A stretch of 64,000 nt of DNA, from the NCBI GenBank assembly GCA_951406725.2, contig OX597833.1, positions 25,668,001 to 25,732,000 on the forward strand. The letters run 5' to 3'. The translations under genes were made by a program, and so were the position numbers. Positions 7,953 through 64,000 of the stretch are shown in pieces. The stretch's first letter is position 1; the number at the start of each line of letters is the position of its first letter. Source of the DNA: Octopus vulgaris (Eukaryota). Below the pieces are notes generated by a model. That model saw only the letters and a list, made by a program, of their open reading frames with translations, did no database searches and was not told the origin of the DNA.

Positions 7953-8795
7953 CTTTGTATATTTAAATAGATTAAAGACACAAAATTTTGAGATAAGCAT
8001 TATAGACAGTTTTTGTGGATTTAGTTTCTCTCTATATTGTGAGTAGATTGGGAATTACAGGGAAATACAGGGAAATTTATATAGAATGTAGCAGATTCAA
8101 AGTTTGTGTTTAAACTGACCTAGAAATAGGGAGTGTTTGGTCAAATTGAAAACAGGGAGAGAGGAATGACAAAGAAAGAAAGAAAAAAAGAGAGAAAAGA
8201 GGAGAGAAAGAAAGAATTAAAGAGAAAGAAGAAAGAAGATAAGTAAAAACAAAAATAAATAATAGAACCCCTGAAGGTATGAATAGAGAGAATAAGGAAA
8301 AGAAAAAAGAAAAATTAAGATATAGGTTGGTCAGTGGTCAGTGGAGGTAGTTTGAAAGTAGGAGTGGGGATAGAGAGAGAAAGGTATTATAGTATAAATG
8401 ATAGAGTAATGGAGTGTGGGTTAAGAGGTAGAGAAAGTACTAAGTGTAGTAGTAGCTATTAATTGCGAGGCAAATATATGAAGAATTAAGAATTAAGGAA
8501 ATAGTAGTGATAATTATTCTGAGAAAATATTTATGTGAAGATGTATATACATGTATATCAGATAAGTTATAGAGATGTTACAAATACAAGCTTCGTGTAT
8601 CATCTTTTCTACATGTGCAGTTATCTAAATTTTGCATGTGTATAAATGTTTACATATACCCACATGCATACCCTCACTCGTACGTATATACGCGCGTATG
8701 GGCGTGTACGTGTATATATGTAAACGAATATAATCAGATGGTTGCATATGAGAGTAACTAGATATGAGTGTAAATTTATTGGTTAATGGGATTAC

Positions 8796-9060
8796 CTAAG
8801 AATTAAAGCGGAAATTGACCGTATGGTCATTTTGGCATTTGGATTTGTGATAGAATTTAAATGTGTGATAAAAGCGATGGTTGCATGCCTCGTTATGTTT
8901 ATTAAGCAGTGTTGGAGAGTTCTGCTTTAATATTTGAAGTGCCACCTTCAGACAAAGCTTGCAGATTGAGCGTTGACCTCGGTAGGGAAGTCCTGAGTCT
9001 ATTATGGACCATGATATAGTATAGGGTATATTTGCATATAGCACTTATTCAGCATTATCT
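8796..9060 (-). mobile_element. Penelope-like element 3' fragment (C-terminus of GIY-YIG endonuclease)
   Basis: ORF 8796-9044 ISWSIIDSGLPYRGQRSICKLCLKVALQILKQNSPTLLNKHNEACNH matches the PLE I.WSII...PY....C.LCL.EK..I....LLNKR.E..CRH pattern. Confidence 0.7.
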
Positions 9061-9123
9061 GACACTTTTGGGTCTCAATGACACCCTTATCTCTCTCATA
9101 TATATATATATATAAAAAAAAAA

Positions 9124-10161
9124 AAACACAAACTGGGACAAGAACGTGAAACATTTTGAAGACGACAAAAAAACACACAAACGGGACTTTCGAAACTATC
9201 AGTCATCAGTCAAGAACCAGATCATCTTCGCAATTTCGGCTGATTAATCTTGAGATTGCTCCAATCTGGGCAGCCCGCCAAGGGAAATCTAAGCCAATCG
9301 CATTAGATTCCTTGGAAGAAAACCTCGAAAGTATACAACACGGTGACGGAAAAACGGACGATGTTACTCGAAAAAAATTCAAAAATACGTAAAGACAATA
9401 ACGATAGCACGGATAAGAATACAAAATAACGTAAAAACAATAATAACAAAACCAGGACGTCAGGACAAGCGTCTTTCGACAGGACGAGTTGGTTATAGGC
9501 TGGCTGTGGAACAAGTGCCTGAAGGCAAACGGAGCACAAACAAATACGTGTTGTCACACTAACTACTTGATGCGAAAAGGCAGTAGTAGCTGGCTGGTCA
9601 CGTGAGCACAAAAAGGAGAAAGGGACAGATGAAGAGAGAAGCAAGAGAGGGAAAGGGACAGGTCAAGTAGGGTATAAGGTCTGAGAGGCAGAGAAATGTG
9701 GGAGAGGAGGGTCGGAGGAAGAGAGAAAGAAAGAAGGGGAACAAGGGAGGAGAAGAAAAAGAGGGAAAGAGACAGAACAAGGGGAGTGCAAAGGGTGAAG
9801 GCAGAGAAAAGTAGGAGAGGGGGGGAAAAGAGACAGTGTAGTCGAGTCGTACCAATGTTAGAGAGTAATATACTTACAGTATAGGGTCAAAAGGTAGGAT
9901 ACGTAGCCGCCATGTATATATGTAAACGTTAAAAAAAAAAAAAATAAAAATAACACAAACTGGGACAAGAACGTGAAACATTTTGAAGACGACAAAAAAA
10001 CACACAGACGGGACTTTCGAAGCTCTCAGTCATCAGTCAAGAACCAGATCATCTTCGCAATTTCGGCTGATTAATCTTGAGATTGCTCCAATCTGGGCAG
10101 CCCGCCAAGGGAAATCTAAGCCAATCGCATTAGATTCCTTGGAAGAAAACCTCGAAAGTAT

Positions 10162-10167
<6 letters not shown>
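9124..10167. repeat. Partial tandem: ~217-bp direct repeats (9124-9340, 9952-10167) around a ~610-bp body, flanked by (TA)n; pLTR-like architecture
   Basis: The two copies are nearly identical (duplicate ORFs 9156 and 9983). No coding capacity recognised. Confidence 0.8.
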
Positions 10168-10228: not shown

Positions 10229-10508
10229 ATTGCAGCGTGGAAGGTGTTTATAAGCCATTTCAGAAACACACAAAAACCGTTAGATTCACTTCAACATTTA
10301 AATTTAATTTGTCAAAATATTTTCGTCACTTTTCAACCGCAACCTGTTTGCTGACAAAATTCCGAGATGCAGCATGGAATTTTGTCAGTGAACAGGTCGC
10401 GGTCTCAGCGACGAAAATATTTTGACAAATTAAATTTAAATGTTGAAGTGAATCTAACGGTTTTTGTGTGTTTCTGAAATGGCTTATGAACACCTTCCGC
10501 GCTGCAAT
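10229..10508. repeat. Fold-back inverted repeat (~135-bp arms, 12-nt spacer)
   Basis: 10229-10363 is the near reverse complement of 10376-10508. Confidence 0.9.
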
Positions 10509-15244: not shown

Positions 15245-15298
15245 TATCGGACCCGATTTCAGAGTTAGTTCATAAGACCCTTCTCTTCATCAGTGATA
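15245..15298 (-). ncRNA. Type I hammerhead ribozyme motif, slightly decayed, in a (TA)n-flanked ~340-bp insert
   Basis: Minus strand: tatca-CUGAUGA-AGAG...CUCU-GAAA-UCGG-GUC-cgata. Core and stem II intact; A-C mismatch at the first stem I pair. Confidence 0.6.
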
Positions 15299-17897: not shown

Positions 17898-17936
17898 CGC
17901 CTCTGATGAGAACCCAGTAAGGTTCGAAAATCGAGG
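17898..17936 (+). ncRNA. Decayed hammerhead ribozyme-like motif
   Basis: CUGAUGA (17903-17909), perfect stem II GAACC/GGUUC, GAAA (17926-17929). Stem III is collapsed, so probably inactive. Confidence 0.5.
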
Positions 17937-18019
17937 AAGATTGTTCATAATTTTTTTTCAGTCCGCAGAGGAATGGTTAAAATTTGTCTTGTTTATAATT
18001 ATACCATATGTTAATTATA

Positions 18020-19671: not shown

Positions 19672-20140
19672 GAATAATTTATTTGTATGATATAAAAATG
19701 CTGAAAAGTTTTTTTAAAAACTTAACAATACAAAGAAGTTAACTGTAAGTTGTAAAGCTAAAAAACGTGTGTGAAAATCCTACATATATATTTCAGTACT
19801 ATCCCCTAGTTCAAGATGAATTCTAAGCATTTGTTTAAATGCTAAAGGTATGCGCTTATAGAACTTTGGTTAACAACCTTCAAAGGAAAAATCTTAACTT
19901 GAGATCTATAAGCGCATAATAACCCTGAAGAGGTACTGACACGTACAGTTAAAAAATGTTACCTTTCATAGCATTTAAACAAATGCTTAGAATTCCTCTT
20001 CAGCTCGGGGATAGTACTGAAAAATATGTGTAGGATTTTCACAATTTTTTTTAGCTTTATAGCTTATAATCAATTTATTTGTATTGTTATGTTTTTCAGA
20101 AAACGCTTCAACATTTTTATATCATACAAATAAATTATTC
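19672..20140. repeat. Fold-back inverted repeat (~170-bp arms) containing a hammerhead-like core with a long stem II insertion
   Basis: 19672-19844 vs 19969-20140 are inverted. CUGAAGA 19925-19931, stem II GGUACU/AGUACU (19932-19937, 20013-20018), GAAA 20019-20022, GUA at 20030-20032. Confidence 0.7.
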
Positions 20141-20149
20141 ATACATTCA

Positions 20150-20215
<66 letters not shown>

Positions 20216-20393
20216 TATATATATATATCGTGACGCATATTTGCCATTTGAATATGGCTAACCCCTAAGGGTGGATGCTACTGTAGTTTGTAGCCCCAGG
20301 AAGATATCTCCTCCAGCTGGCTATAGACACACTATCTGTGTCCTCTCAGTATTTGTGAAGGGGAGTCATCCTCCCCGTCTTCAACTCATGATA

Positions 20394-20438
20394 CACACGG
20401 ACCCGAGTTTCAAGGTGTTTACCTTTCATCAGCGTGTG
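20394..20438 (-). ncRNA. Intact type I hammerhead ribozyme (minus-strand copy)
   Basis: cacacg-CUGAUGA-AAGGU-aaac-ACCUU-GAAA-C-UCGG-GUC-cgugug. Perfect 6-bp stem I, 5-bp stem II, short stem III, GUC cleavage triplet. Confidence 0.9.
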
Positions 20439-20887
20439 ACAATCATGGTTGTCGACGAGAAGTCAGCTCCCTTCACAAATACATATACTTTTTCCAGTGT
20501 CGATTGACACTGATATTGAAAAAGTGAAATCAAACAATGATAAATCTCAGAGCGAGTTATAAACAGTAGCGGTCCGTGTGTATCATGAGTTGAAGACGGG
20601 GAGGATGACTCCCCTTCACAAATACTGAGAGGACACAGATAGTGTGTCTATAGCCAGCTGGAGGAGATATCTTCCTGGGGCTACAAACTACAGTAGCATC
20701 CACCCTTAGGGGTTAGCCATATTCAAATGGCAAATATGCGTCACGATGTGTTACCGCTACTGTTTATAACTCGCTCTAAGATTTATCATTGTTTGATTTC
20801 ACTTTTTCAATATCAGTGTCAATCGACACTGGAAAAAGTATATGTATTTGTGAAGGGAGCTGACTTCTCGTCGACAACCATGATTGT

Positions 20888-20932
20888 CATACGCTGATGA
20901 AAGGTAAACACCTTGAAACTCGGGTCCGTGTG
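20888..20932 (+). ncRNA. Intact type I hammerhead ribozyme (plus-strand copy), predicted cleavage after C20926
   Basis: cauacg-CUGAUGA(20894-20900)-AAGGU-aaac-ACCUU-GAAA(20915-20918)-C-UCGG-GUC-cgugug. Stem I extends through caugau/aucaug and caac/guug. Confidence 0.9.
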
Positions 20933-21142
20933 TATCATGAGTTGAAGACGGGGAGGATGACTCCCGTTCACAAATACTGAGAGGACGCAGATAGTGTGTC
21001 TATGGCCAGCTGGAGGAGATATCTTTCTGGGGCTACAAACTACAGTAGCATCCACCCTTAGGGGTTAGCCATATTCAAATGGCAAATATGTGTCACGATG
21101 TGTTACCGCTACTGTTTTTAACTCGCTCTGAGATTTATCATT

Positions 21143-21198
<56 letters not shown>

Positions 21199-22829
21199 AT
21201 GTATGTATATTTTTATATATACACGGTCTCCTTCTAGGAATTTTACATATGCATTGTTCAACTCGGAACTATAGTAGAAGACACTCTTCCAAGCTGGAGA
21301 ATGAGCTTCTTCCCCAACCAGCCATGACGCCACCTGTGTGTTAAAAATTTAATTTAATTGTTACACCAGTTTTCAGGCAGTTATTCCATAGTGCAATAAA
21401 TAAACAATTCAACACATTTCTAACTCAATGTACCGATCGAATTTTGGTCGTCGTCTTCGAACACATTTCATAAATTATTGTTTTCCATCTCTTGTCTTAA
21501 AGAATATATAACAATCAGTATGCAGCCGCTAGATCGTACGGTCTATTGAGATCAAGAAATGATCTCAGCGTAAATTCCTTCGTGATGCAGTTCATCAATA
21601 AAAAAGCTGCCTTTTTATTTCTGCAATCACAGCTGAGTACTTATAAGGAGCAACAAACTGAGGAATTTTGCTATAATAACGAACACTTCAGTAACCTAAA
21701 GCAAAGTCACGAACGCAGCTACCGATATTATTTTACAGACCAAACTCTATAACATTATTTCAAATCTGTGACTAGTTTTTCTCCAATTTGGCGCTCTCCT
21801 ATTGAAATTGATATCACTCTTTTTCTCTACTTTCATTTTCCTATGATCGGTAATATGAAGCTTTGTTATAATAATATAATTATTACTTGAATCTAAAGTG
21901 TATTTGTCCGCTGTATTTACAGTAAAAGCTACAGAATATAACAGCTTTCATTTGCATATTTCGTTACAATGTACATTCGAATTGTATTCTCACTGATTAC
22001 TTTATACTCAAGAGCCGCTATTGCCATATTGTTTCAAAATCCGCCACTCGATAGAACACCAAAAGCTAAGTATTCTGGGATTATCGTAAAATAGTTCTAC
22101 TGTATAACTTTCTCACTTCTGCTGAAGATATTGTTTTCAGATTTCCATTGAAGTTGCCAGCTGTCATTATTTTACTGAGCAACTACCATTGTTTGGGGAT
22201 AGACATTCAACCTTTTAACTGTGAAATTATATTTCATGGTTATTCCAGTAATAGTGTGAAATATCTACAATAAAAATAAAATACAATTGGTATTTTCTGC
22301 AAGTCACGTTGCCTTAATAAATTTGATATATCACAACAGTAGAAGGTTTCAAACTTGACATTCCTCAACAAGAGATAGATCGGTAGCTAAACTTGCTTTC
22401 CGCTGTTTATGCTAATTAAATTACAAAAGGTTCTTAAGTGACAAGTATACTTATATATGTAAGTTCAAGCTGAGAGAGCATGAAGTTTGGTGAGGTTGAA
22501 CTGACACAGTTAAAATAGTAGCAAACTGAAATTATTCGGCTTTCTAATCAATATACTTGTGGGTCCTGGTTTGTGTAATATACTTTACATACATAAACAC
22601 AATACATACATACATACAGAAGAAGAAGAAGAAGAAGAAGAAGAAAAAGAAGAAGAAAAAGAAGAAGAAGAAGAAGAAGAAGAAGAAGAAGAAAAAGAAG
22701 AAGAAAAAGAAGAAGAAAAATATGTGAGTGGTATGACAGTAGTAGGATGTTGGTGGAACCCCCTTAAATGGTTGAGTGACCTGTTGTAGTTGCCATAGTA
22801 ATGACTGGAATTGTTCTGAATAAAGTCAT

Positions 22830-22980: not shown

Positions 22981-23060
<80 letters not shown>

Positions 23061-25500
23061 ATTTCAAGAATTTCAAGCTGGGTTGTTCGTTAGAGGCGCA
23101 AATATCAATGTGTTCGCTGAATGCTATTTTACTGTATTCCAGAATTTGAACTGCATCCTATGTAGAGTCATCCTTTGATGTAAACTGTTTTGGGTTTGGG
23201 CTATGTACGCTCTTGACACCCGGAGCAATTTAATATATATATATATTAGGTTTTCCGAAGCACATGTAAAGTTGTTCTTCACTGTTAAACTTTGGCCCTG
23301 TTTGAAAGAGAACTCCGATCCCTCATTTAGGTTGACACATATACCACAGTTAGGTCTTCCGCATATTTTTATTTACGCCTTCAGTGTTGTTTTAGGAGAC
23401 ATTTCATAGATTTGGATTGCTCTTTAAGATGGTGAGTGTTTGGAGGATTAAATTCATTCTGTGGTCCCTTTTTAATAGAAGAATGTTCTGGAGGATGGTG
23501 CCAAAGACTTCATTGTTAAGGGGTTGTGTGTGGAGATGTATGGTAGGAGTTTGGGTTGTAATTCCTTCTTTAGTTTGGGATGTCTGAGTTCGTGGATGTT
23601 GAGTTGTACGGCACATTGAAAGCCTAAATCAATCAGGCATGGTGGGTAGTTCCTGGTAATGAGTGTGTACTTTAGTTCATGTAGTTGTGTGTCTCTGGTG
23701 CCTGTATTAGAAGTTATAGTACAAATACTTTTTGCTAGGTTGAAGGAGATATTCATTCAAGTGTGTCTGTGGTGGCATGAGTTGAACAGTAGATATTGCT
23801 TGAAGGCTGTGGGTTTTTTGTTGTTGGATTTCTTAATGAGGATGTCGAGTAATTGTAAATTGAATGTTTGTTTATGCAAAAGAATGAAACAGTCATCCAG
23901 ATACCTCTTCCAGTTATTTTCTATGTAGAGGGAGAATGGGATGCAGTATTTTTCTAATACCTTACGATAAAGACTGATTTCTAGACATCCCATGATAAGG
24001 TTAGCAAAGGAGGGTGGGGCATTCTCGTACACATCGCAAGCCCCGATTTTTGTCGATAGAAGTTGTCTTTGAAGACAAAAATGTTATTCTCGAAGGTGAA
24101 TTTTAGCCCTTCGATTAAGATTTCTTTTTGATGTGATGTAGGAGTTCATTGGAGTAATTCTGTAGCCAGAATTGAATTGCCTCTATTCCAAGGCTGTGGT
24201 GGGTATTAGAATAGAGGTTGACTACATCGAAGGATACTAGTAGGGTGTCTTTGTTTATTGTTTTCGGGAGGTAACTGAACATATCTAGGTCGTCCCGTAT
24301 GTAGCTTTTGATATGATTGAGGAATGGTTTTTAAGAGAATATCTAAAATGTTACTGTGGCGGTGGGTTTTGCATGTGGGACCTGTTAATATAGGTCTTAA
24401 TTTGAGATCATTAAGAGTAGGGAACTTGATTATTATATATGTGGCTATCCTGCATGCGTTACTTATTTTCTCACTTTTGTGTATCTTAGGAATACCGTGG
24501 AATTGACTGGATTTACTTTTGAAGTTAGTCATATAATCGTATTCTTGTCGGTGAGCCCTCTCTGTATAAGTATAACATAGTCTTTAGGTTTCTCATTATT
24601 TTCTGCGATCTGTAGCGTTGCACCTTTTCATAATATTTTGTGTCTTCTAATAAGGATAGTACTAGAGTTATATAGCATACTGTGTTAATTAAAACAACTG
24701 CACTCCTTTTCTTAGCCTCTTTGATTGTTATTGTTTTATCATATTTTAATTTGTTCACCTCAGCCCATTCTTTTGTTGCTGAAGTTCGGCTTGTGTTTTT
24801 GTTTGTGTTTATGTTGATATTGGTAATTTGTGATGTATTCACAGAAATGATAAAAAATGTTGTTCTTAGCGTTTGAAGGGGTGTAGTTAATTTTATTTCG
24901 GACTAACGATTCGTCCTCGTAGTATTTGTCGTAATTTTCTACAGAACTACGCAATGTCTACTCTCATTTCGTTGTAGTTGAGGTGTTGGGGGTGGGTGTA
25001 AACTTGACTTCTTTGGAGAGTATGTTGATTTGGTTTGCTGTTCTTTGTGAGTTAGATTGATGATTTTTATCACTTTTGGCTTCCCCTGTCTGTCTGGTAC
25101 TATCTTGTATCTCTGTGTTTGCGTAATGGGTTTAAAAAATGATTGAGGTCATTGGGACGGTAGCTGTTATGAAGTTGTTCCATGTTATTGTGGAGTGCCT
25201 TCTCCCTGTGATTTATGGTGCGGTCTCTTGGAAGGGTATTGAAAAGTGTATCCCTATATCCCATGTTCGGATGTGGTGTTTTAGGGCACCGTCGTTGGTA
25301 ATTATTACGTGTGGTACGGGTTTGTTGCGCATGGTTGCTAAGTGGATTGCTGGAACGAAAATTTCATTGGTAACTCCTTATGGGAGGGAAGTTGTAATGT
25401 CTATCCTCCGGGTAGTGATTTTTCATTTCTCTGATGTTGAGGTACTCCGGACGTTGTTTCGCTGGTGGTTTACGTCTTGTACTCTTTTGTTTTGTTTTTG
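22830..25500 (-). mobile_element. Decayed Penelope-like retroelement (RT, thumb, GIY-YIG), frameshifted
   Basis: ORF fragments FHGIPKIHK...LKLRPIL (24206-24532), PPSFANLIMGCLE...WKRYLDDCFI...KKPT..KQYLLFNSCH (23757-24032) and NISFNLAKSICTI (23472-23756). Near 23100-23290: NFTCASENLIY..CSGC..IAQT..LHQRMTLH..FSEHIDIC (GIY-YIG). Ends approximate. Confidence 0.9.
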
Positions 25501-50313: not shown

Positions 50314-50327
50314 GAATAATAATAATG

Positions 50328-50410
<83 letters not shown>

Positions 50411-50455
50411 AACAACAATAATAATAATAATAATAATAATAACAACAATAATAAC

Positions 50456-50517
<62 letters not shown>

Positions 50518-50715
50518 CAACAACAGCATCATCATCATCATCAGCAACAACACCAACAATAATAATGATAATAAATGCCCTGATGCAGTACCAGAGAGTG
50601 GCTCTCATGTCTTTTGATCTTAACTTATTGGAAGTGTTATCATGTTCATTGTTTTGTCTTGGTATAACAGATGGGCTACAGTGTCACTTTGATGGCATGC
50701 ACTGTTCTCTCACTC

Positions 50716-50779
<64 letters not shown>

Positions 50780-50806
50780 GCAACAACAACAACAACAACA
50801 ATAATG

Positions 50807-50840
<34 letters not shown>

Positions 50841-50859
50841 TAACAACAACAACAACAAC

Positions 50860-50893
<34 letters not shown>

Positions 50894-50917
50894 GTAATAA
50901 TAATAATAATAATAATA
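50314..50917. repeat. (AAT/AAC)n microsatellite tracts flanking and hosting TAA-targeted elements
   Basis: Direct inspection. Confidence 0.95.
50572..50715 (+). mobile_element. Internally deleted copy of the 13380-13917 (AAT)n-targeted non-autonomous element
   Basis: aaatgccctgatgcagtacc...gatgggctacag joined to tgtcactttgatggcatgcactg matches both ends of the reverse complement of 13380-13917. Confidence 0.75.
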
Positions 50918-53900
50918 AGGACACTAATAGCTCATGGTAGACCAAAAGAAAACAGCAACAATGTAGACGAAATAGGTAATAGTAGCACAGAAGCCAGTGT
51001 ACAAGCGGCAAATCAACTTCCCAATGGGGAAGTTAAACAAAGAATAGCGAAGACGAGAGATTTGAAAAAGAGGAGAACGTAGACCTTCCTCAAGAAAACC
51101 AAAATAGATATGACATAGAATTTGAGGTGAATAATAGAGAAAAGATTATGGAAGCAAAAGTGGACATTATGAGAGAACTCGGCAAGATTGAGCTCACTGA
51201 CATGGTTAATAGAGAACCACTACCAAAGTTTTCAAATGGCACAAGAAATAACAACACAATCATGACATATAACGTTGCCCTAGGACAGATCTTAAGAAAT
51301 AAGGGGAATGATTTGACAACCTTAAATAATCTCATTTATTCCACTGCTAAAGTAGTAACTACCCAACTAGGTATTAAGATGACAAAGAAAAAGGCCAGGC
51401 ATGTCAATGAACCTCCTAAGTGGAAAGTAGCGATACAAAAAGAGATTGAATCTCTGCGGGCGGATGTTTCAGTTCTCGATGAGCTTGCTAGAGGAGTGAA
51501 TATTAAGCCGAGAAAAGCTAGAAAAATGAAGCAAAAATATAAAATCAAAGATCTCATAAACCTCCCTGCAACTAAGGAACTGTTGAAACAACGGATACAG
51601 TTGAAAGCTCAACGGCTTAGAAGGTATGACAAAAGAAACAAATTTTATCGACAAAATAAATTTTTTAAGACGGATGCAAAGAAATTTTATAGGGAAATTG
51701 GCAAAAATAAAATACACATAGAAGATCCACCTAAGATTGAGGAAGTGGAGGAGTTCTGGAAGAAGGTATGGAGCAACGAAAAAGAGTTTAATGCTGAGGC
51801 TGACTGGATAGAACGTGAGAAAGAGAGACTGGATGAACTTGAAGAACAGAAATGGGAAGCAATAGGAATAGAGGAGCTAAGGTGTGTCCTTAGGAAGGCT
51901 CATAAATGGAAAACCCCAGGACTGGATCGGATCCCTAACTTCTGGCTGAATTGTTTGACAGAGGTACACGAACATCTCGCTGCATCTCTGTCTGATGTCA
52001 TTCAGAACCCAGAGCAAATACCTGCTTGGCTGACTGAAGGAACCACCTACCTATTACCTAAAACCGAAGACACAAAAAACCCAAAGAATTACCGGCCAAT
52101 AACATGTCTCAACACCACCTACAAAATCCTCACATCCATAATAACGGAGAGAATGTACGCTTTCCTTGAACAAAATTCTATCCTTCCACAAGCTCAAAAA
52201 GGTTGTAAAAGAAACTCTTATGGGTGCAAAGACCAATTGCTCATAAACAGAATGATTGTAGAGAATTGCCGGAGCAAAAACAAAAACCTGAGTATGGCAT
52301 GGATAGACTACAGGAAAGCGTATGACAGTGTCCCACATAAATGGATACTCAAGGCCCTTGAGATATACAAGATCTCCCCTGTCGTCTCAAAATTCTTAGA
52401 GAATAGCATGACCATGTGGAACACACGTCTCTTTCTAAGCCATAGTAATGGGATGAGCCAGTCCAACAGCATCAACATCAAACGAGGCATCTTTCAAGGT
52501 GACTCCCTCTCTCCATTACTTTTTTGCATGGCACTGATCCCACTCTCAAACAAATTGGATAGTGCCAGATATGGGTACAAAGTTTTTAGCAAGTTAATAA
52601 ACCACCTTTTTTATATGGACGATCTAAAGCTGTTTGCCAAGAATGACCAAGAGCTAGAAGGGCTGCTAACAACTGTTAAAGAGTTTAGCAATGATATCGG
52701 AATGGATTTTGGCCTTGATAAGTGTGCTAAAGCAACTTTTGTAAGAGGCAAGCTCAGGCAAACAGCTTCTGTTAAATTAGATATTGACACTACCATCAAG
52801 GAACTTGACCCACAAGAAAGCTACAAATACCTAGGAATCAACGAAGGAGATGGTATACATCATGCTACTATGAAGGAAAAAATAAGAAAGGAGTACTATA
52901 GGAGAATAAGGCTTGTACTGAAGACTGAACTCAACTCCAAAAATTGCATTGAGGCCATTAACACCCTGGCACTTCCAGTAGTCCAGTACAGTTTTAACAT
53001 CATTAACTGGAACCTTACGGAACTCCAACGCTTGGACAGGAAGACAAGAAAGTTACTGACATCCAGGAGCATGCACCACCCTAAGGCAGATGTAGACCGC
53101 TTGTACCTACCTAGAAGCAGCGGGGGGAGAGGAATGATGCAATTGGAGCTGTGCTATAAGACCTCTACTGTAGGAATGAACAGGTACCTATCTAGTACAA
53201 ACGACTGGATGCTGCGACTTGTGTGTGAACACGAAAGCAGCAAAAAGCTGCATTCTATTGTCAAGGAAGCTTATAAGTTCGAAAGGGAACTAGGCATTAA
53301 CCTTGAATCAGGTGAAGAGCCAGAAACCACTGCTACCAAGCAAGCAAAGCGAATCAGGCAGACTGCAAAAAAGAATGGGCAGAATCAAATTGAGAGGCGG
53401 TGGAGCCAGAAGCCCCTGCATGGACAATACATTCTCCGAAGCCAAAATGCTGATGTAGACCAAGCAACAACCCATCAGTGGCTGAAGAGTTCTGGATTGA
53501 AAGCAGAGACTGAAGGCTTCATAATGGCAGCACAAGATCAAAGCTTGTTTACCAGAAATTACCAGGCTAACGTTCTCCGAAACGGTACTGACCCTAAATG
53601 CAGATTCTGTGACACATTTGACGAAACAATAGACCATCTCGTTTCGGGATGTCCTGTGCTGACACCAAACGAATACAAAAATCGCCACGATAGGGTAGGA
53701 CAGTATATACATTGGAAGATATGTAAACACTACAAATCCGACACTCCTGCTAACTGGTATGAACACCATCCTCAGCCAGTTGTTGAAGGTAAAGATGTCA
53801 CCATCCTCTGGGATTTTCCAGTCAACACTGACAGAACGATCAAGGCTAATCGACCAGACATAATTGTTAAAGACAGGGAAGAAAATACCTGCAGACTAAT

Positions 53901-54319
53901 AGAAGTAAGCGTCCCCACTGATAAAAATGTATCTGTCAAGGAATTTGACAAACTTAGTAAATATAAGGACCTGGAAATCGAAATACAGAGGATGTGGAAT
54001 CTTAAAACAAAAACTGTTCCTGTTATTGTAGGTGCCCTAGGTATGATAAAAAAGGGATGTCAGAAACACCTAGACAATATCCCTGGAAAACCATGTCTCA
54101 AGGAAATCCAAAAGATTGTGCTAACAAGTACTGCCCACATCCTTAGAAAAACCCTATCAATGTAAATATTTGTGTTTGTATTACATGGAGATATTTCTCT
54201 ACTTCCCCTCCCCAAGCTTTCAGCTATATTTCAACAACTCTTAACCTTCACTTGCCCTAGGGCGCTGGGTGTGCCCCGGCAGGTGATTGCATCAAACATG
54301 CAGATTAAAAGTAAATGAC
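50918..54319 (+). mobile_element. R4/Dong-clade site-specific non-LTR retrotransposon, probably 5'-truncated, inserted in (AAT)n
   Basis: Single long ORF with RT and C-terminal RLE, a ~155-nt 3' UTR ending directly in (AAT)n, and a 5' junction at (AAT)n. Confidence 0.9.
51127..54165 (+). CDS. Non-LTR retrotransposon polyprotein: reverse transcriptase, CCHC zinc knuckle, restriction-like endonuclease (R4/Dong type)
   Basis: Motifs YRPITCLNTTYKILT, AWIDYRKAYDSVPH, GIFQGDSLSPLLF, HLFYMDDLKL, YKYLG, CRFC...ETIDHLVSGC, RHD and RPDIIV..D...LIEVSVP...K..KY. The frame is open from 51037, so the true start is uncertain and there is a likely upstream frameshift. Confidence 0.93.
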   Translation: MNNREKIMEAKVDIMRELGKIELTDMVNREPLPKFSNGTRNNNTIMTYNVALGQILRNKGNDLTTLNNLIYSTAKVVTTQLGIKMTKKKARHVNEPPKWKVAIQKEIESLRADVSVLDELARGVNIKPRKARKMKQKYKIKDLINLPATKELLKQRIQLKAQRLRRYDKRNKFYRQNKFFKTDAKKFYREIGKNKIHIEDPPKIEEVEEFWKKVWSNEKEFNAEADWIEREKERLDELEEQKWEAIGIEELRCVLRKAHKWKTPGLDRIPNFWLNCLTEVHEHLAASLSDVIQNPEQIPAWLTEGTTYLLPKTEDTKNPKNYRPITCLNTTYKILTSIITERMYAFLEQNSILPQAQKGCKRNSYGCKDQLLINRMIVENCRSKNKNLSMAWIDYRKAYDSVPHKWILKALEIYKISPVVSKFLENSMTMWNTRLFLSHSNGMSQSNSINIKRGIFQGDSLSPLLFCMALIPLSNKLDSARYGYKVFSKLINHLFYMDDLKLFAKNDQELEGLLTTVKEFSNDIGMDFGLDKCAKATFVRGKLRQTASVKLDIDTTIKELDPQESYKYLGINEGDGIHHATMKEKIRKEYYRRIRLVLKTELNSKNCIEAINTLALPVVQYSFNIINWNLTELQRLDRKTRKLLTSRSMHHPKADVDRLYLPRSSGGRGMMQLELCYKTSTVGMNRYLSSTNDWMLRLVCEHESSKKLHSIVKEAYKFERELGINLESGEEPETTATKQAKRIRQTAKKNGQNQIERRWSQKPLHGQYILRSQNADVDQATTHQWLKSSGLKAETEGFIMAAQDQSLFTRNYQANVLRNGTDPKCRFCDTFDETIDHLVSGCPVLTPNEYKNRHDRVGQYIHWKICKHYKSDTPANWYEHHPQPVVEGKDVTILWDFPVNTDRTIKANRPDIIVKDREENTCRLIEVSVPTDKNVSVKEFDKLSKYKDLEIEIQRMWNLKTKTVPVIVGALGMIKKGCQKHLDNIPGKPCLKEIQKIVLTSTAHILRKTLSM

Positions 54320-63500: not shown

Positions 63501-64000
63501 ATAAATCCTAGAATCTATATCTATATATATATGAAAAATATAAACCTTTGGAAGCTAGAATAAACAAAACGACGTTTTATGGTTTGTCTATTTACTTCTA
63601 TCATGCCTGCATACACATATATACACATATATGTATATATACATACATAAACACATACATACATATATATATATTTATGAGTGTGTGTGTGTGTGTGTGT
63701 GCATATATGCGTATATATGTATATTTACACAGACATGACCGAAATAAATAGACAACGCATAAAATATCGTTTTATGTTTATTCTAATTTCCAAAGGTTTA
63801 TATTTTTTATTAATTGACTTTTATTTTTCAGGTTTTATATCTAACTATTTAACCATGCTATGTACAAAATAAAACCTTGGAACTGTCTGAATTCCAAACA
63901 GGCCGCATTGTGTGTCATTCTGAAGCTGGATATAGCGTAAATTTGCTGAAAATCTTGTGATCCTGCTTTCTACAGTTAAGAGTGATTACCCAATTCACCA

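Follow-up and report, generated by a model that had tools for sequence, protein, structure and literature searches.

According to sequence self-comparison and TRF, a 916-nt element built from a single 352-nt hammerhead unit lies between two (TA)n tracts in the 64-kb window (i.e., the whole stretch of DNA that was analyzed here). Its parts are given below in the coordinates of the window, along with unit coordinates (u), which are defined as position - 20570 and taken in copy 1.

20152..20228, no strand: left half of the (TA)n target tract (TRF period 2, 38.5 copies)
20227..20573, minus strand: inverted arm of 347 nt, u183-352 then u1-177, running from 20573 down to 20227
20394..20438, minus strand: putative type I hammerhead motif of the inverted arm, intact (core match 20400-20432; predicted cut between 20400 and 20399)
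20571..20573, no strand: head-to-head junction, a 3-nt GGT microhomology common to both arms (top-strand reading)
20571..20922, plus strand: copy 1 of the direct arm, one full 352-nt unit (sequence self-comparison)
20574, plus strand: C17, the base 5' of the scissile bond, kept in the direct arm and missing from the cleaved 3' product
20888..20932, plus strand: putative type I hammerhead motif of the direct arm, intact (motif match; predicted cut after 20926)
20923..21142, plus strand: partial copy 2 of the direct arm (u1-220), with 7 differences from copy 1
21100..21142, plus strand: 43-nt "tail" (u178-220), present at a single outer end (arm-end comparison)
21142..21221, no strand: right half of the (TA)n target tract (TRF)

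The arms are oriented head-to-head (5' end to 5' end), the direct one totaling 1.6 units (20571-21142), and the final two bases (AT) of the left (TA)n tract are common to the end of the inverted arm. (TA)n flanks the element on both sides, such tracts being abundant in the window, and no target-site duplication is discernible at these flanks. The element holds no ORF of at least 120 aa, and no further copy of the 352-nt unit was found elsewhere within the 64-kb window. A transcript across 20227-21099 would form a long duplex, either perfect over 177 bp or extending over 347 bp at 98%, which dsRNA pathways would likely have as a substrate.

Hammerheads cleave on the 3' side of N17 (numbering according to the Hertel scheme, which PMC4209133 also uses), and the motif found here has the same layout in both arms, namely a 6-bp stem I, CUGAUGA, a 5-bp stem II, GAAA, a 2-bp stem III, and GUC. 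In the direct arm, stem I corresponds to 20888-93/20927-32, the core CTGATGA to 20894-900, stem II to 20901-14, and GAAA to 20915-18; in the inverted arm, stem I is CACACG/CGTGTG and the constrained fold amounts to -7.4 kcal/mol. RNA folding places the active monomer fold 6.3 kcal/mol above the MFE. The cut-to-cut monomer (20575-20926) reaches -129.6 kcal/mol, with a z of -6.7 and 0/100 shuffles as good, and the hammerhead by itself has a folding z of only -1.4 to -1.6 versus shuffles. Rfam reported no hammerhead at gathering or E-value thresholds, its matches being TA-repeat noise, and exact scans with a degenerate hammerhead pattern returned no locus from either metagenome_contigs or viral_contigs. 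We regard the putative hammerhead as a motif match with a plausible fold. Its 2-bp stem III sits within a self-complementary 8-mer (20918-25; self-duplex of -8.9 kcal/mol), and hammerheads with a short palindromic stem III are described as acting as dimers and cleaving poorly alone (PMC4209133, PMC6765202). Poseidon PAc of Anolis shares both a hammerhead with such a stem III and an AUG inside the hammerhead region (PMC11167929). The ORF of the Anolis PLE likewise begins within the hammerhead, at 26 nt from the cut on its 5' side (PMC11167929). The AUG within the core of the focal hammerhead opens a frame of only 27 codons (20897-20980, plus strand), which may be a relic of a parent element.

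Matches to the core pattern are not confined to the focal element, as the window contains 19 overlapping ones against 4.0 expected. On the minus strand, 9114-10167 comprises two 227-nt direct repeats that are 97.8% alike, lie 827 nt apart, and have TA runs at both ends, with one hammerhead-core-like motif per repeat (9179-9209 and 10007-10036; stem I doubtful). This region, probably a second partial tandem of the PLE type, starts about 160 nt upstream of its own motif and is free of core-search bias. Two further hammerhead-core motifs, at 15250-15293 (minus strand) and 17903-17942 (plus strand), occupy short segments bounded by TA tracts, the end of the former (GAAA-TCGG-GTC) closely resembling that of the focal element; both were rejected as junction controls, since they had been found by the core, which is absent from any element that begins at the cut. 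The segment 19672-20140, adjoining the focal element on its left, forms an imperfect inverted repeat (77% across about 470 nt) with a CTGAAGA...GAAA motif inside it (19960-20003, minus strand), and may be a MITE or an older PLE-type pair, and two 280-nt hairpin elements at 10229-10508 and 63531-63810 (90% and 78% self-complementary) are probably MITEs. An open frame of 1042 aa at 51037-54165 (plus strand), located just after (AAT)n at 50315-50918, matches Pfam RVT_1 (E 4e-31) and weakly zf-RVT; it is apparently an intact LINE, which we take from its motifs to be R4/Dong-like. Finally, broken frames at 23060-25300 and 8700-9099 (both minus strand) display the RT-like motifs VSFDVVNLY and WKRYLDD and a possible GIY-YIG-like end, suggesting what we presume to be decayed Penelope-like elements (PLEs); Pfam gave 0 relevant hits in 8 frames or pieces from these two regions.

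Beyond the window, contigs of four public runs (X4, X6, X3, and X1, from four studies under three organism labels) were aligned to the unit 20690-21041, a reference selected to have the cut and both junction points inside it, with a threshold of 85% likeness. The four runs yielded 942, 1226, 2023, and 2253 contigs at 85%, a number of contigs not being a number of copies, and the unit belongs to a multicopy family whose 352-nt tandem closure (21041 to 20690) is observed in 4/4 runs. Among the matches listed (24/426 rows), loose ends that lead into AT-rich sequence accumulate behind u174 (20744; 14, 15, and 18 contigs in X4, X6, and X1) and behind u177 (20747; 14 contigs in X4). The outer ends of the focal element are u177 and u220, and the first of these, where the inverted arm has its 3' end, coincides with this common 3' end of the family at u174-177. 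As a family end, u220 is found among the matches listed (32/6521) in one clear other copy, a diverged one that ends there with 759 unrelated letters beyond (X4, record 21), and in one X6 contig with a 5-letter overhang (record 27). Family variants affect loop 2, N17 (C to A), and the 10.1-11.1 pair closing stem II, and none is listed in the core, in a variant table that is incomplete (it omits, e.g., the G at 20778 carried by 2/3 window segments). Depth over u120-220 exceeds that over u240-330 about tenfold and was left unused, since depth is no copy number.

With a type I hammerhead core per unit and a tandem 352-nt unit that lacks LTR and coding ORF, the family conforms, as judged from sequence, to the metazoan non-LTR retrozymes. 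In these retrozymes, the tandem unit measures 170-400 nt (about 350-390 nt in mussel) (PMC7229834; 10.64898/2026.07.22.740005), and the present family shares with them the type I hammerhead, a GC content below 50%, a strongly self-paired monomer, the lack of a long ORF, and many copies (PMC7229834). The focal locus has an inverted arm and a tail, neither of which is described for retrozymes in the accessible text of these papers (the word "inverted" occurs 0 times in that of PMC7229834). A preprint (10.64898/2026.07.22.740005) calls "active" a retrozyme copy with two consecutive whole hammerheads; since the focal locus has one whole hammerhead per strand, it would be a dead-end daughter copy by that rule.

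The insertion of the unit, as it stands in the assembly, is of the PLE type: it combines a partial tandem with an inverted, 5'-truncated copy set head-to-head against it, a tail bounded by u177/u220, and a (TA)n target. The initial annotation had recognized a Penelope-type inverted repeat here, a view that is strengthened by the 43-nt tail, the (TA)n target, and the family-wide 3' end. Insertions of EN+ PLEs often associate an inverted 5'-truncated copy, a partial tandem, a tail at one end (30-40 bp as stated for PLEs, against 43 nt here), and a microsatellite target such as (TA)n (PMC8557442), their copies are usually head-to-head with microhomology on record at the 5' junction (PMC3846280), and non-autonomous PLEs give short 5'-truncated insertions in microsatellites (PMC9977147). 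Unlike EN+ PLEs, the focal element lacks an RT-endonuclease ORF and its unit closes on itself after 352 nt. An autonomous PLE is ruled out by the lack of an RT plus GIY-YIG ORF between pLTRs in the element, and neither a homologous autonomous element nor a pLTR match was found elsewhere in the window. The repeat annotation of Octopus vulgaris counts 31 recently active Penelope-like families, hammerheads and retrozymes going unmentioned in its accessible text (PMC13282606).

The sequence of the arms informs on how they were made. The segments 20227-20403 and 20571-20747 are 100% complementary across 177 nt; the identity noted in the initial annotation for 20227-20400 and 20574-20747 holds and extends 3 nt further. 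Copy 2, to which about five differences had been attributed, does differ from the matching segment of copy 1 at 5/177 sites over 20923-21099, and at 7/220 sites over u1-220. Classical single-RNA twin priming is ruled out, as the arms overlap by 177 nt rather than abut. The fold-back that had been proposed would make the inverted arm a copy of copy 2, and this is contradicted by SNP phasing: over u1-177, the inverted arm shows 0/177 differences from copy 1 and 5/177 from copy 2 and, compared with 20753-21099, the template of a fold-back, it has 7 differences, 5 of which side with copy 1. Only later conversion between the arms could rescue it, as in a self-priming scenario where the 3' ACC of the direct-arm cDNA would have folded onto a GGT of the same strand before conversion erased the phasing. 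Self-priming has been proposed for palindromic head-to-head PLE junctions (PMC3846280), and a 7-nt palindrome (CGGTCCG) does cross the junction here; however, the inverted arm that it predicts, 20753-21099, departs from the observed one as just described, and the latter ends at the family priming site, like an independently primed cDNA, making self-priming a very improbable origin for this locus. The differences are unevenly spread between the three segments (0 in the inverted arm, 2 in copy 1, and 6 in copy 2; p = 0.003, with one site assigned using family data), which fits either a diverged tandem source or conversion between arms. In the contigs of the four runs, the family hardly ever shows the copy-2 changes at 20966 and 20987 or the copy-1 change at 20890; a source array, which would be expected to share them, is less easily reconciled with this. 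A-to-I editing was dropped as an origin of the copy-2 changes, A to G accounting for only 2/6.

Part of this structure could conceivably stem from the assembly, if a misjoin or the collapse of a repeat had created the inverted arm. In favor of this possibility, assemblers are said to have difficulty with inverted PLE structures (PMC8557442), one pair of arms shows no difference at all, and the focal locus's own joint (20753/20923) is not among the contig joints listed for the four runs. The absence of this joint is nonetheless no evidence against the structure, since short-read contigs drop rare links, and it implies that the contig test misses junctions between young copies; inversion joints of other copies are present in short-read contigs. 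Moreover, the locus is not a mirror image, as the identical arms lie 167 nt apart and its two flanks bear no relation to each other (30% ungapped identity), the inverted arm has alleles of its own, and both outer ends are family-typical, all of which renders an artefact highly improbable.

At the join, the top strand reads AGTAGC-GGT-CCGTGTGTA (20565-20582), where the GGT at 20571-20573 corresponds to the last base of loop 3, G16.2, and U16.1. The inverted parent would continue as GGT-AAC and the direct one is preceded by CTCG-GGT, so that the microhomology is exactly the 3 nt reported in the initial annotation; a microhomology of at least 3 nt is expected for about 5.5% of the head-to-head joins that the unit allows. 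The predicted cut lies between 20574 and 20575, and a cleaved RNA would start at 20575 (u5). The direct arm begins within 20571-20574 (u1-u4), i.e., 1-4 nt upstream of the 5' end of such an RNA, with GGT and C17 (20574) belonging to the upstream cleavage product. In other words, the array had been said to start at the hammerhead GUC, and the breakpoint does adjoin the predicted cut, at 1 nt from it, but the arm begins 5' of the cut and not at it. Given that a uniformly placed breakpoint has a 2.6% expectation of lying at most 4 nt from the cut, the chance that one of two breakpoints falls at most 4 nt from the cut is about 0.05 and at most 1 nt about 0.017, both values being post hoc.

From this position, the initial annotation had concluded that the cDNA reached the 5' end of a self-cleaved RNA, a conclusion that the bases at the join do not bear out. 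If the end of the cDNA were the first base of the 3' cleavage product, the arm would start at u5; it starts at u1-u4 and keeps C17, so one untemplated base alone would rescue a ribozyme-defined junction. In addition, both arms traverse an intact predicted cut site (20400/20399 and 20926/20927), and since each crosses one such site, neither template can be a cleaved monomer. What can still be envisaged is that the reverse transcriptase ran off the 5'-OH at u5 of a partly cleaved multimer, added an untemplated G, and left a cDNA that joined at a chance GGT (4/352 positions); both coincidences are needed to rebuild the native GGTC, since the inverted parent would place A at 20574 and cannot supply C17. 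Under such a model, the microhomology becomes an accident and the same cDNA must have traversed another intact site, when an uncleaved or religated template gives all four bases GGTC directly and makes the microhomology functional. On sequence grounds, the bases at the join would then be better explained by an uncut template than by a cut one. The likelihood ratio of a cut end over chance, computed from assumed inputs, ranges from 0.5 to 14 and exceeds 1 in 6/9 settings; it stays at about 0.5-2 if joins favor microhomology and is higher if joins are blunt, the value of 14 being attained with blunt joins and common one-base additions. Hence, a single locus cannot decide between a cut end and chance.

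The other copies of the family can be brought to bear on this issue. Among 11 joint rows in the contigs of the four runs, 5 change strand (u126/46, 158/275, 176/242, 251/321, and 325/49), the u176 breakpoint being probably the 3' end, and 0/5 of these inversion joints fall within 30 nt of the cut. The same holds for the flank junctions at u127, 231, 245, and 251, hand-read among the matches listed (32/6521; 0/4 within 30 nt), which may be secondary insertions or subfamily borders; two of them coincide with an inversion breakpoint or adjoin one, and are perhaps not independent, and u126-127 is near the edge of the reference. No loose ends occur before 20923-20927 among the matches listed (24/426). 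One same-strand row, 20778 to 20925, annotated "between: not known" and drawn from one X6 contig with a depth of 21, breaks at u3, which is 2 nt away from the cut. It may correspond to another copy that begins at the cut, to a diverged copy, or to the focal locus itself; it was left out of the junction count along with five other same-strand rows, and one match near the cut among 16 breakpoints has a chance probability of 0.36. A clustering of breakpoints in the long stem (5/10, for a stem that makes up about a third of the unit by eye) was dropped as unremarkable. Overall, the cut is excluded as the usual junction, its share being below 45% at the 95% bound, and a share of 10-20% is compatible with the data, P(0 in 5) being 0.59 and 0.33, respectively.

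These counts weigh against a cDNA ending at a cleaved RNA, as does the behavior of the purified Anolis PLE, which in vitro inserts uncleaved RNA just as efficiently if the hammerhead is inactivated and hence has no need for hammerhead cleavage (PMC11167929). On the other side stand the breakpoint 1 nt from the cut, the upper range of the likelihood ratio, the ambiguous contig row with its breakpoint at 20925, and two published observations: animal linear retrozyme monomers with 5'-OH ends exist (PMC7229834), and 5' junctions of R2 are set by ribozyme cleavage (PMC3774820). R2 is a precedent for a ribozyme cut defining a cDNA end, albeit with a different, HDV-like ribozyme and in another class of element, and the R2 junctions of a species follow the cut site (PMC3774820), unlike the other junctions listed for the focal family. 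Taken together, we deem a run-off at the cleaved end unlikely. The cut site could also have acted indirectly, if the reverse transcriptase crossed it on a religated circle, or by jumping between monomers, and came to a halt 1-4 nt further on, at the ligation point or at the hammerhead three-way junction, before a microhomology-mediated join. This would account at once for the position of the join and for the native GGTC, and retrozyme RNAs are known to be circularized, probably by RtcB, and have been proposed as reverse transcriptase templates (PMC7229834). Yet a single circle would yield identical units when the copies differ at 7/220 sites, each arm passed one such site without stopping, and the other joints do not cluster at the cut, so that an indirect action of this kind appears decidedly unlikely. 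Whatever its form, that the cut site played some role in placing the join strikes us as possible but doubtful.

The reading that we favor, with moderate confidence, is that a PLE protein acting in trans inserted, in one event, a non-autonomous hammerhead repeat of high copy number (non-LTR retrozyme). Starting from the anatomy, the microhomology, the common 3' end, and the tandem closure observed above, a PLE endonuclease would have cut both strands of the (TA)n tract, and each 3' OH would have primed reverse transcription internally, with a main start at u177 and a second start at u220, 43 nt downstream. Such a route has a counterpart in the purified Anolis PLE, which cuts and extends both target strands and uses two internal starts that bracket the tail (PMC11167929). 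Both cDNAs would then have passed through an intact GUC/C site, which implies as template either a multimer that had escaped cleavage or an RNA that had been religated; the free 3' ends of the two cDNAs may have annealed via GGT/ACC, followed by fill-in and head-to-head sealing. The join would lie beside the cut by chance, or at most through an indirect effect, and would hold no record of a self-cleaved end. Of the retrotransposition of a ribozyme-processed RNA that was initially put forward, what stands is the retrotransposed hammerhead element, when the end of a self-cleaved RNA as the terminus of the cDNA is given up. Several points speak against the favored reading: the breakpoint that lies 1 nt from the cut (p about 0.02-0.05), the likelihood ratio above 1 in 6/9 settings, the ambiguous X6 row, the focal joint missing from the joints listed, the uneven spread of differences, and the lack of an autonomous partner in the window.

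From the perspective of retrozyme biology, the locus associates a protein-free hammerhead repeat with the full insertion signature of a PLE, i.e., an inverted arm, a tail, a fixed 3' end, and a TA target. So far, the mobilization of retrozymes by PLEs has been argued from co-occurrence and phylogeny (PMC7229834; 10.64898/2026.07.22.740005), and a search of largely open-access literature retrieved no published account of this signature for a retrozyme. As read from the sequence, the focal element would thus lend structural support to a PLE-driven mobilization of animal retrozymes. The role of PLE and retrozyme hammerheads in transposition is itself stated to be unclear (PMC8557442). A junction placed exactly at the cut would bear on this role; the focal join is one base off and nearly alone. 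It is, in our view, rather unlikely that the cut or religation point is an in vivo hotspot at which Penelope-type cDNA synthesis ends, with a minority of insertions recording ribozyme-processed RNA. If this were nevertheless true, it would constitute the first genomic evidence of a hammerhead acting on the template of transposition, against its dispensability in vitro, and the many junctions of the family would make the question a countable one.
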